From positions 133,610,001-133,674,000 of the forward strand of contig OZ024741.1 in assembly GCA_964016885.1 (NCBI GenBank): a stretch of DNA of 64,000 bases, in the 5' to 3' direction. This document shows, one piece after another, positions 16,941 through 55,680 of this stretch; position 1 is the stretch's first letter, and each line of letters opens with the position of its first letter. Both the position numbers and the translations under genes were made by a program. Below the pieces are notes generated by a model. That model ran no database searches. It was not told the DNA's origin and was given only the letters and a program-made list of their open reading frames with translations. Origin of the DNA: Eledone cirrhosa. Its lineage: Eukaryota.

Positions 16941-18706
16941 AACGAAGGAAATGTGGTAAGGAACCAGGTGGACCATAACGCACCAAAGTACTCAATACTT
17001 AGGGTAGTAGAGTGGGTAATAGGAACAAGTAAGACCCCGACGGCTGAGCTCAAGCCGTTTCGACGGCTAATTCTGTACTGAATGAAAATTTATTCTGGTA
17101 TTTAAATAGCCGAGCTTATCAAGGGGTAATTCCATATATGGTCAAAGAGATAATCACCAGGATTGGTCACATCACAAGTTAGTAGTAAATCTGTGATGGC
17201 AAATTGGTGGGGGAAGGGGTAGCTAAACCTGCCGGTAGGAGAAAAAGGGAGGGGGTGGAGTAGACCCATTCATGCGTTGGTAGTGCCAGCTACAGCTGGG
17301 CGTGAGGTCAAAGAGGATACTGGGGAGGGGGAGGGGGAGGAGGTCGAAACGGTAAGTAGAACAATGAAGGGTAAAACTATAAAAGGTACTGAGAGAGAAA
17401 AAAAAATATAAGCAAAGTCTGGTTACTAAGACTTAAGTCTCTTGCTATTGCTAGGTTAAAGAAATACATAAATAAATAAATAAACAAATAAGTGAATAAA
17501 AGAATAGATAAATAAATTAAAAAAAAAAAAATATATATATATATATATGTAATGAAGAATAAAAAAATAAATAGTAATAATAAAAATAAACTAGGTGGGA
17601 CGGAAATAAAGGGACCCTTATACGAGGTATAAGTGCGTGTATCGTACGGTGACGGGTCAACAAAGGGGGAGCAAAAATACTAAAGAGACTACCACGAAAT
17701 AATAAAGGTTTCTACCCCAATCACAGGGCCAGCAACCACCCAGTGCAAGAAAGTAAACTAGTACGAGAATATAATTCAGGGTCCCGCAAAAAAATACTAG
17801 TGCTAACTCTAAGGGTACCGCCACGAAACAAAAAGTCTTATACAAGCTACATGAAAGATCGTACGAAGTAAAAGTAAAGAACGGAAAATTAATACAGGAA
17901 CACCCCCCCCCCCCCCCCAAAAAAAAGGGAAAAAGAAGAAAGAAATACTGGATAAACGAGAAATTAAAGCAAAGATGCCACTAAGAAATATAGAAGGCAC
18001 GGAAAAAAGGGACAGCGGTCGGAGAAGGGGGCGAGTATCCGAAGTCTAACACCTCTGCTATAAAAAGCGGAGTCAGCCAAATCTATCATAGAATAGGGGA
18101 GGGGGTGGGGTGCTGAAGCTACAAGGGACCGATGGGCTACCTCGGGTGGGCGAGAAAAAGACGACGACAAAGAAAAGGAACTGGGGTAGAAGGACTAGGG
18201 AGGGATGGGGGGAAGGAGGAAATATAGAGGAAGCGATAAAAGAATGTAAAAGAAGATCTTACGTCTCCATTGGCAAGCAGGGGTTACCCATTACAATATA
18301 GGCAAGTGGGGTGTTATAGCCCTAGTCTACCCCCCCCCCCCGGGTCATTATGGGGTTTGAGGGCGAGGTAAGTCCTACGTAATCGGTGTTTACATGCAGT
18401 AACCAGTTCATCTTTCTTGTTTAGGAGTTGGTCCGTCGAAAACAGCATTTGTAATGTTTCCTCCGAGCATAAATTGCACGGACGGCGTCCTCCCGTGTAA
18501 GAGTTGGCTCTGGACAGTAATTTCCAAGTGAGATCATAGTTGATGTTGTTGTCCTTGAGGTCCCATATGTGGCCCGAAAGTGTAGTGGCGTGACGCCGGG
18601 CCGGGTTTCGGAAGGTATGTCTGTGTTGGTATAGCCGGGTCTTGAAGTCGCATGCGGTTAATCCTATATAAGCTTTGTTGGAGGTGTCCGTGCTCACGAT
18701 ATACAA
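16941..18706 (-). mobile_element. 5'-truncated Penelope-like element (probably Naiad/Neptune type): GIY-YIG C-terminus, long 3' UTR and pLTR
   Basis: ORF 18314-18706 has YIGLT...FKTR..QH...CNLC...LLNKKDEL..ACKH. The 3' end carries a hammerhead and abuts (TA)n. Confidence 0.85.
17034..17127 (-). ncRNA. Type I hammerhead with a U3-A8 core variant
   Basis: acccc-TTGATAA-g..cggcta(loop)tagccg.c-GAAA-cggc ttgagctca gccg-TC-ggggt. Confidence 0.75.
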
Positions 18707-19230
18707 ATTGGGCTACTCAGCCGTTAATATGCATAAGGTAAGTATATACGTTCAACAATCTTTCAGGAAGGTATACGTTGCTGACGATAGCTAATAAGCT
18801 TGAAACTAGTACAGCGTTCCCTTGTCAGTGTTGAACAAACGAGCAACGATGGTTTCTGGACACTACGGCTTAATACGGGATGTTTGTTTACAAACACACC
18901 GAGTATTATAATAAATGTTCGGTGAATCTGACGATAGCTAATAAGCTTGAAACTAGTACAGCGTTCCTTTGTCAGTGTTGAACAAACGAGCAACGATGGT
19001 TGCTGGATACTACGGCTTAATATGGGATGTTTGTTTACAAACACACCGAAAATTATAATAAATGTTCGGTGAATCTATACGTACATATATATATGTGTGC
19101 ATGTATGTATATATATTTACATACTACTGTACGTCTGTATACATATATGTATGTGCGTGTACATACTTATATTTAAGTAACAGCCGTACTAAGAGTGGGA
19201 AATGAAATTTCGTTTCATTTTTTCCGTTTA
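18698..19230 (+). mobile_element. Retrozyme family A copy with an internal 147-bp duplication; intact hammerhead at 18768-18822
   Basis: CTGACGA...GAAACTAGTA at 18781 and again at 18928. Confidence 0.8.
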
Positions 19231-19242
19231 TATATATATAAC

Positions 19243-54000: not shown

Positions 54001-54884
54001 TGACTAAATCGAAGATCATTATTATTATTGAGTTTTCCGTCGGTCAACAAGCTTTGCAGCATATTTTACGTCCAAGTTCCTCCGCGGTTAGCTTTGCTTT
54101 TCATCCTTACGGAGTCAATAAAATAAAATACCAGTAACACACTGGGGTCGATTTAATCGCCTTTCCCTTTCCATTTCCTCGTGCCCAAAGTGGAAATAAT
54201 TATTATTGAGTTTTAATGTGAACAGGCATATTTTCTTTTACCTTTGTGGCTTTTGAATTTGCTTTCTTTTTCAATCAACGGAATGGTATGTCGATGTTTT
54301 AGTGCTGTATCGATTAAGCTTATTTACAAGGCAAAGTGATAATTCATCTAATAACTTGTTCACCCCATTCAGAGAAAAACAAAACTTTTTATTTGGACAT
54401 TTTTTCTTCGATTTATTTCACACACGTCGCTGACGACGAAACACGCATGAGAAACAAAACAATAATAAAAAAAGGGAAACAAAAATCATATACTTACAAA
54501 GTTGAGAAAATACTCATAGTTGAGAAAATATAGAAGAAAAAGGGAATTTAAGAGGAAATACATCAGGCATCAAAATACATACAAACAATGGTAGCCGAAG
54601 CTATGTTTTGTGTGGTTTTGTTCGCAACGGTGACAAAATTTTCAGTGCGGACTGGTTACGCTCCGAAAAATGTTTTCGCTTTCTGCTTGACTTATAATTA
54701 AGGAGTATCTTACTATTCAACATCTCACACACATTTCCTCGTTTCGGATACATCTCTCAAAATTCCGTTTTTCAGTTTCAACTTCCACTCTTCAATCGTT
54801 TAGTGTCCTACTGTTTTATTTTTGCACTGAGGAAGTAGGGAGAAAATATTTTTTTCTTTGTGGGTTTTTAAAAAATATCTACGG

Positions 54885-55680
54885 TCAAATTATATTAAAT
54901 CTATATGTTTCACATGTTGCCGGGTTTAAAGATCTACCACTGAACTATATTAAATCCATTTGTTATACATTTTGCCTTGTTTAAAGATCTACCACTGAAC
55001 TATATTAAATCTATATGTTATACATTTTGCCGGGTTTAAAGAGGTTTAAACTATATTAAATCTATGTTTTACATGTTGCCAAGTTTAAAGATCTATCGTT
55101 AAACTATATTAAATATGTATGTGAATTTTGTATATCTAAAGATATACGGTACGTATATAAATAAACATTTTGAAAGCTACACAGCTATGAATCGAACACT
55201 GGCGATCAGCGCCGCCGAGCGGTGTCCAGCAGAAGCAAGGGGGATAACCGTCGATGCATTTCGAACTTAATGGTTCTCATCAAGACGATGCTTCCCCTTC
55301 GCTACTGCTGGATTTGAAACAGCCAAAACATAGTTTTTTCGTCTGTGCAAGTGGGGTGATTAGCCTCCTTTACACACGACGCTGTATACGTTGGCTCAAC
55401 TTAAAATAGAATTAGTATGTAGCTTCGACATAGCTGTATACAAATATGTATGTGAATTTCGTATATCTAAAGATATACGAAATTTTAATTATATTAAATA
55501 TATTTTTTTTACATGTCGCCAGTTTTAAAGGGATCTACCGTTAAACTATATTGAATCTGTTTTACATGTTGTCAGGTTTAAAGATCTACCGTTAAACTAT
55601 ATTAAATTTGTTTCATGTGTTGCCAGGTATATAGATCTACCGTTAAACTATATCAAATCTGTTTTACATGTTGCCAGTTT
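54885..55680. repeat. ~50-bp minisatellite interrupted by a retrozyme
   Basis: Repeated ttaaagatctaccgttaaactatattaaatct..tttacatgttgcc. Confidence 0.8.
55111..55479 (-). mobile_element. Retrozyme family D (331-nt monomer plus 38-nt redundancy); hammerhead at 55247-55289
   Basis: 38-bp direct repeat at 55111 and 55442. atcgtc-TTGATGA-gaac cattaa gttc-GAAA-tgca-TC-gacggt, with stem I extended by 18 of 20 bp (55225-55312). Confidence 0.82.

Follow-up and report, generated by a model that had tools for sequence, protein, structure and literature searches.

Hammerhead motifs in the window

The window analysed here is a 64,000-nucleotide stretch of the Eledone cirrhosa genome (assembly GCA_964016885.1, contig OZ024741.1, positions 133,610,001 to 133,674,000 of the forward strand; all coordinates below are counted from its first letter), and the features of interest are hammerhead-type ribozyme motifs in which core positions 3 and 8 form either a C3-G8 or a U3-A8 pair. 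The window was searched for hammerhead cores by a simple scan and by direct reading; the host genome comprises 3.0 Gb. Motifs of four sequence families were found, namely a motif at 17 kb belonging to a Penelope-like element (PLE) and three families designated A, B and D. Direct reading confirmed every motif of a preliminary description of this DNA at the place where that description had put it.

The 17-kb motif occupies 17034..17127 on the minus strand and has a U3-A8 core, TTGATAA, at 17122-17116 (TTATCAA on the plus strand). Family B is represented by one U3-A8 copy on the plus strand (47408..47499, core TTGATAA at 47436-47442) and by four C3-G8 copies in tandem on the minus strand, the first at 25868..25947 (core CTGATGA at 25926-25920) and the second, third and fourth with the same core at 28531-28525, 31198-31192 and 33864-33858, respectively. 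The family D motif (55240..55297, minus strand) combines U3 with G8 in the core TTGATGA at 55283-55277. The core of family A, CTGACGA, occurs in eight window copies.

All window copies contain a (C/U)3-U4-G5-A6-N7-(G/A)8-A9 box and then G12-A13-A14, in this order. Downstream of the core come a hairpin forming stem II, GAAA, a helix III that is short and mostly palindromic (CUAG in family A, UGCA in family D), U16.1-H17 and a 3' strand complementary to the bases immediately 5' of the core, which is the type-I layout. A15.1-U16.1 and a non-G H17 are present in the window motifs and define a predicted cleavage site. The G10.1-C11.1 pair was found in the 17-kb motif and in family D; family A has U/U at these positions and family B is devoid of the usual pair.

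Exchange of the 3-8 pair in family B

The 47.4-kb copy of family B lies within a repeat of approximately 318 bp that spans 47136-47612. This is the size of the family B repeat unit, and genomic copies 315 bp apart were also seen. Homology between the 47.4-kb and 25.9-kb copies extends over about 220 bases (165 of 226 columns do not vary in five rows), and their hammerheads differ at many positions beyond 3 and 8. The four C3-G8 copies of the window sit in a 2.6-2.7-kb tandem repeat extending over 25.9-33.9 kb.

Two lists of genomic copies sharing one 15-base upstream anchor were obtained for family B. The U3 list comprised 284 copies, the first 100 of which were 96 TTGATAA and 4 TTGATGA, and the C3 list comprised 671 copies, with 92 CTGATGA and 8 CTGATAA among the first 100. 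Independent segregation of U3 and A8 among genomic copies, which according to the preliminary description would speak against compensation, was thus not seen, A8 accompanying U3 and G8 accompanying C3 in the great majority of listed copies. The first 60 copies from each of the two position-ordered lists (T3, from which the window's own copy was left out, and C3) were taken as a sample, and the 120 hammerhead segments were aligned with MAFFT without structure input. Among the 118 distinct rows the 3-8 states were UA in 57, CG in 54, UG in 2 and other combinations in 5, so a Watson-Crick pair (C-G or U-A) was present in 111 of 118. For the counts in the two lists of 100, the naive probability, which ignores the kinship of the copies, is 2e-41.

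The kinship was taken into account by means of a tree of 122 copies in which positions 3, 8, 10.1 and 11.1 were masked. All C3-G8 copies fell into one group of 62 (Shimodaira-Hasegawa-like approximate likelihood ratio test, SH-aLRT, 82) with the U3-A8 lineages around it. The tree requires one coupled 3-8 switch and, at its tips, three changes of position 3 and another three of position 8. The 8 unpaired copies correspond to these 6 tip-level changes, none with more than 2 descendants: unpaired states were confined to single copies or near-identical pairs, and the paired states head large, diversified groups. Since there was one coupled switch and a test of independent contrasts between positions 3 and 8 found only 2 to 4 usable pairs and had no power, statistical replication within family B is lacking. 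The preliminary description had proposed a double compensatory change within one family. What stands of it is a strong association of positions 3 and 8, with both states present in homologous family B copies; what does not stand is replicated covariation, as a single event accounts for the pattern.

The median pairwise difference amounted to 20 columns in the U3-A8 group versus 10 in the C3-G8 group. The U3-A8 copy and the C3-G8 copy nearest to each other are separated by differences at 8 of 73 columns, and the switch therefore needs nothing beyond point mutations. Block replacement by recombination was also considered as its origin and was ruled out by this nearest pair.

A third position changed along with the pair. 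At the base preceding G12 (11.1; positions 47456 and 25907 in the window copies), 48 of 55 C3-G8 copies have T and 53 of 59 U3-A8 copies have A, which could reflect coupling or hitch-hiking. In the C3-G8 copies the 10.1-11.1 combination is A-U in 26 and U/U in 22 of 55.

A history of this kind could also be left by a neutral founder effect, in which the hammerhead is unneeded for spread and U3 and A8 hitch-hiked together in one source copy per lineage. The single, unreplicated switch of family B agrees with this explanation, as does the change of a third, probably unrelated position (11.1) on the same branch; moreover, minimal hammerheads of PLEs are reported to cut poorly in vitro (Cervera and De la Peña 2014, PMC4209133). 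However, under a founder effect it would be difficult to account for the persistence of U3-A8 through the later diversification of its group (the median difference of 20 columns against 10), for the lack of any unpaired state with more than 2 copies in the 122-copy tree, for the several types of compensatory pairs in stem I and for the PLE lineage described below, in which N7 takes all four bases while U3, U4, G5, A6, A8 and A9 are fixed. We consider a founder effect unlikely.

Fold of the family B hammerheads

The structure scored on the MAFFT alignment was written by hand. The proportion of paired cells was 81.3 %, compared to 19-46 % when the partners were slid by 1-3 columns. The covariation score was 0.311 versus 0.230 in shuffles (0 of 500 shuffles reached 0.311), cells changed on both sides numbered 151 versus 77 in shuffles, and 12 of 15 pairs showed changes on both sides. 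In stem I the pair 2.1-1.1 was UA in 64 and CG in 23 copies, and 2.2-1.2 was CG in 51, UA in 27 and UG in 26. An earlier shuffled-partner control of stem I made with our own script (4.69 versus 4.37 paired of 6) discriminated poorly, since the copies share ancestry and best pairing had served to pick the site, and it was superseded by the MAFFT-based count.

In the 120 copies U4, G5, A6 and A9 were invariant and the GAAA box nearly so. A15.1-U16.1 was A-U in 103 of 118 distinct rows, and the predicted cleavage sites were UC in 80, UU in 39 and UA in 3 of 122 copies. The helix III sequences include the near-palindromes CAGACUG (38 copies) and CAGGACUG (10 copies) and the exact palindrome CAGCUG (6 copies).

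At two family B loci, L150 and L031 (C1), similarity to the family breaks off inside helix III, a few bases short of the predicted cleavage site. Such ends would fit element ends set by self-cleavage, or plain truncation.

The tandem repeat that carries the C3-G8 copies extends over 25700-34500 and is made of 3-4 units of about 2.6-2.7 kb assembled from pieces of several elements. Each unit contains one family B and one family A hammerhead and, on the plus strand, the 3' half (GAAA, helix III and cleavage site) of a relative of the 17-kb motif. This 3' half is joined head-to-head to an inverted copy of the element end.

Chance matches and detection by Rfam

The family-specific patterns gave 91 to 12,095 genomic matches and the reversed control patterns gave 0, which excludes chance as their source. 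The suggestion that the motifs are chance look-alikes and no hammerheads is scarcely credible on these grounds. It could draw on the fact that Rfam gave no match at the gathering score, as well as on the many chance matches that a loose scan of the window also returned. It does not agree with the hundreds to thousands of true matches against none for the reversed patterns, with the covariation that supports the family B helices or with the sub-threshold Rfam alignments, which place the same helices and the same cleavage site in 5 of 7 C3-G8 copies.

These alignments were obtained with Hammerhead_HH9 (RF02275, clan CL00010) and scored 15.7-25.1 bits. The C3-G8 copies of family B thus resemble Hammerhead_HH9 in helices, boxes and cleavage site and differ from it in scoring far below 52 bits, the gathering score. 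No match to Hammerhead_HH9 or to another Rfam hammerhead was found in any of 7 U3-A8 copies of family B or in the 17-kb motif. Over the whole window Rfam yielded 0 matches at the gathering score, and a whole-window search by E-value was swamped by microRNA-like hairpins from simple repeats. The expectation that searches based on the consensus or on CUGANGA would miss the U3-A8 variants was therefore borne out, as no U3-A8 copy tried received a hammerhead match from Rfam.

A near-perfect hairpin of about 200 bases at 8483-8680 reached 121 bits against the plant microRNA family MIR1858 (gathering score 137). It is probably a fold-back repeat and not a microRNA.

The PLE lineage of the 17-kb motif

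The 17-kb motif has G10.1-C11.1, a long stem II, stem I formed by ACCCC and GGGGU, a 5-bp helix III with a GAGCUC loop and the site U16.1-C17, with C17 at 17039. These helices were seen in the sequence and its fold only. The motif is located approximately 640 bases upstream of frameshifted pieces of a PLE open reading frame (ORF) on the same strand (14258..16399, minus), which end in a GIY-YIG domain. The GIY-YIG endonuclease domain at 14258-14644 (minus strand) was recognised by Pfam with 23.8 bits, above the cut-off of 22.6; Pfam did not recognise the reverse transcriptase (RT) part of these ORF pieces, in which RT motifs were seen by eye. Of the four families, the 17-kb motif alone was found in a PLE ORF context.

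Over 106 bases the window copy shares 100 % identity with eighteen further copies in the genome; hence this U3-A8 element has spread recently. A tight pattern built on the 17-kb motif found 364 copies, and the first 100 listed were 99 TTGATAA and 1 CTGATAA. A wider pattern, in which only U3, U4, G5, A6, A9 and the conserved helix III were fixed, gave 3,944 genomic matches. Counted by eye, the first 100 of these comprised 73 homologous cores, 16 repeat hits of the same copy and 11 non-homologous junctions. Position 8 in the 73 homologous cores was A in 71 and G in 2. N7 was G in 29, A in 19, U in 14 and C in 9 (same 100 matches, also by eye). A free N7 within an otherwise fixed core is, as read from these sequences, characteristic of hammerheads.

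A pattern combining C3 with the same helix III was used to look for a C3-G8 sister of the 17-kb hammerhead, and none was present among the 91 genomic matches. About 10 of the 91 were homologous, all of them CTGATAA and none CTGATGA, and most of the matches were junctions of 5'-truncated copies with unrelated DNA. Because C3 homologues are this few and all read CTGATAA, the entire PLE lineage uses U3-A8.

A relative of the 3' half of the 17-kb hammerhead was noticed at 34410-34460. Its stem II differs and is perfectly paired over 9 bp, a core box cannot be recognised upstream, and the relative is cut short by a TA microsatellite.

Two further ORFs lie just past the GIY-YIG end of the PLE copy. 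The one at 10201-12492 (minus strand) encodes 763 amino acids of a retrotransposon without long terminal repeats (non-LTR), with RVT_1 and zf-RVT, and the one at 13158-13853 (minus strand) resembles by eye the C-terminal part of another RT of the long interspersed nuclear element (LINE) type.

Families A and D

The family A copies of the window include a hammerhead at 12804..12862 on the plus strand (core at 12818), with U10.1/U11.1, helix III CUAG and the site UA, and two tandem 147-bp units at 18781..19076 on the same strand, each opened by its core (at 18781 and 18928). On the minus strand, copies lie within the tandem repeat at 26675..26705 (core at 26705), 29344-29374 (core at 29374) and 32007-32037 (core at 32037), and a further one is found at 36814..36872 (core at 36858). 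The 147-bp spacing is that of the window; genomic arrays of family A are spaced by 420-430 bp. The family pattern had 12,095 genomic matches.

In stem I the 36.8-kb copy has A-U at the pair 2.3-1.3, where the other window copies have U.G, as had been pointed out before, and it carries an added C/A mismatch at the neighbouring pair 2.2-1.2. Among the first 100 genomic copies listed, the 2.3-1.3 pair was U.G in 61, A-U in 22, G.U in 14, U-A in 1 and mismatched in 2 (by eye). The swap in the 36.8-kb copy thus reflects a large genomic subfamily, given the frequency of A-U in this count.

Family D gave 107 genomic matches, and the cores of the first 100 listed were CTGATGA in 87, TTGATGA in 3, TTGATAA in 2, CTGATAA in 1 and others in 7. 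The window copy, one of the 3 with TTGATGA, has stem II GAAC/GUUC, helix III UGCA, the site UC and a one-base deletion in a loop. The earlier view of family D as an intermediate between the two pair states had to be abandoned: judged from its sequence, the window copy belongs to a C3-G8 family and has decayed.

At C2:230632008 and C2:230633486 lie two family D copies inverted with respect to each other, both with TTGATAA. This pair could represent one more small offshoot with U3-A8, here in a third family.

Comparison with known hammerheads

According to Perreault et al. (2011, PMC3088659), several hammerheads found in nature show covariation of C3 and G8 to U3 and A8, U3-A8 hammerheads are active in vitro (citing Przybilski and Hammann 2007), and a U10.1-U11.1 mismatch occurs and is tolerated in natural hammerheads. 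The motifs described here share with these variants the U3-A8 covariation and, in family A and part of family B, U10.1-U11.1. They differ from the account in section 8 of that paper, which gives no copy counts, in that U3-A8 is fixed here in animal retroelement lineages of high copy number.

In Schistosoma mansoni, a U3-A8 hammerhead family belonging to the Cercyon PLE and giving about 1,300 hits was described by Cervera and De la Peña (2014, PMC4209133), who called G10.1-C11.1 highly conserved and reported dual motifs on opposite strands as a PLE arrangement. As in those elements, the hammerheads found here are of type I; their stem I is open, and their helix III, being very short or palindromic, is suggestive of dimers. 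They show great sequence variety with compensatory changes. The copies likewise occur singly, in tandem or as close opposite-strand pairs; many minus/plus, back-to-back pairs 0.2-4 kb apart were present in the genome listings of the PLE lineage and of family B. As in Cercyon, one entire family has U3-A8 in place of C3-G8. Differences from the PLEs of that paper concern the host genome and the families themselves, the stable 5-bp helix III and long stem II of the 17-kb motif, the lack of G10.1-C11.1 in families A and B and the occurrence of both 3-8 states within one homologous repeat family.

Non-LTR retrozymes of metazoans are 150-450-bp tandem repeats that all carry a type-I hammerhead (Cervera and De la Peña 2020, PMC7229834), and have been proposed to be non-autonomous relatives or derivatives of PLEs (Li, Clavereau and Pollet 2026, preprint 10.64898/2026.07.22.740005). 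The 147-bp tandem and 420-430-bp arrays of family A and the ~318-bp unit of family B are of this type, so that, from repeat architecture only, both families appear to have the architecture of non-LTR retrozymes. PMC2920678 and PMC7151607 contributed nothing further on U3-A8. Because the U3-A8 swap was published in 2011 and 2014, the present case is a well-documented new example and not a new phenomenon.

Interpretation

The window motifs are probably minimal type-I hammerhead motifs of PLEs and of short non-coding retrozyme-like repeats derived from them, and in two of the lineages U3-A8 substitutes for the core pair C3-G8, likely preserving self-cleavage. The sequence evidence is consistent with selection that maintains the paired 3-8 state. 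In this the preliminary description pointed the right way but went too far, the selection on catalysis that it proposed being an inference.

In the mechanism that we propose, the transcript of the element would fold into a hammerhead. Families A, B and D, with their short palindromic helix III, would do so as a dimer between neighbouring copies, and the 17-kb PLE motif, with its 5-bp helix III, may fold alone. The RNA would then cut itself after H17. If such processing is needed for copying of the element, descendants would be left only by source copies whose positions 3 and 8 form a Watson-Crick pair, either C-G or U-A, the latter being isosteric. Inserted copies would decay neutrally, giving rise to the scattered U3.G8 and C3/A8 copies, among them the family D copy of the window.

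Several observations weigh against this interpretation. The association of positions 3 and 8 inside family B goes back to one evolutionary event on one branch, and the tree itself is poorly resolved, with 79 of 118 inner branches open. The U3-A8 copy at 47.4 kb is somewhat decayed, its stem II being reduced to 2 bp. Families A and B are without the usual G10.1-C11.1 pair that closes stem II, and in the U3-A8 copies of family B positions 10.1 and 11.1 are mismatched (A/A in 35 and C/A in 17 of 59), because 11.1 changed along with the 3-8 switch. No family copy reaches an Rfam gathering score, the best being 25.1 bits with Hammerhead_HH9 against the required 52. Finally, the need for catalysis itself is unproven, since the minimal hammerheads of metazoan PLEs show low activity in vitro (PMC4209133).

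The mismatched 10.1-11.1 positions could also mean that U3-A8 was selected for weaker or slower cleavage, as part of a tuned ribozyme dependent on dimers or on a cofactor. In support of this possibility, the title of Przybilski and Hammann (2007) states that tolerance of the pair exchange depends on the surrounding elements. On the other hand, the U3-A8 motif of the 17-kb PLE has the canonical G10.1-C11.1 and a stable helix III, hence no general sign of weakening accompanies U3-A8. We consider selection for slower cleavage very unlikely. Self-cleavage preserved by a substituted pair remains our preferred explanation.

As to the direction of the change, it is a possible but rather doubtful view that U3-A8, instead of being a rare tolerated variant, came first and was retained for long in two lineages. 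One of these would be the PLE, with several thousand copies and recent activity, and the other that half of the 318-bp retrozyme family which shows the greater diversity. The canonical C3-G8 core of the younger clade would then have been derived from U3-A8 by a coupled change of positions 3 and 8 and of the base preceding G12. If true, family B would record a natural passage from one fitness peak of the hammerhead core to another, involving a third, epistatic site.

What is known about hammerheads is unchanged by these results, and the copies are good material for a comparison of cleavage kinetics among the four 3-8 variants. A whole class of hammerheads in animal retroelements escapes Rfam and CUGANGA descriptors. 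The Eledone copies constitute a large natural data set on the hammerhead core, with thousands of copies, several subfamilies and both pair states in one repeat, in which the 3-8 tertiary pair behaves as a unit and N7 drifts freely. The very recent spread of a U3-A8 element provides indirect evidence that this core works in vivo.

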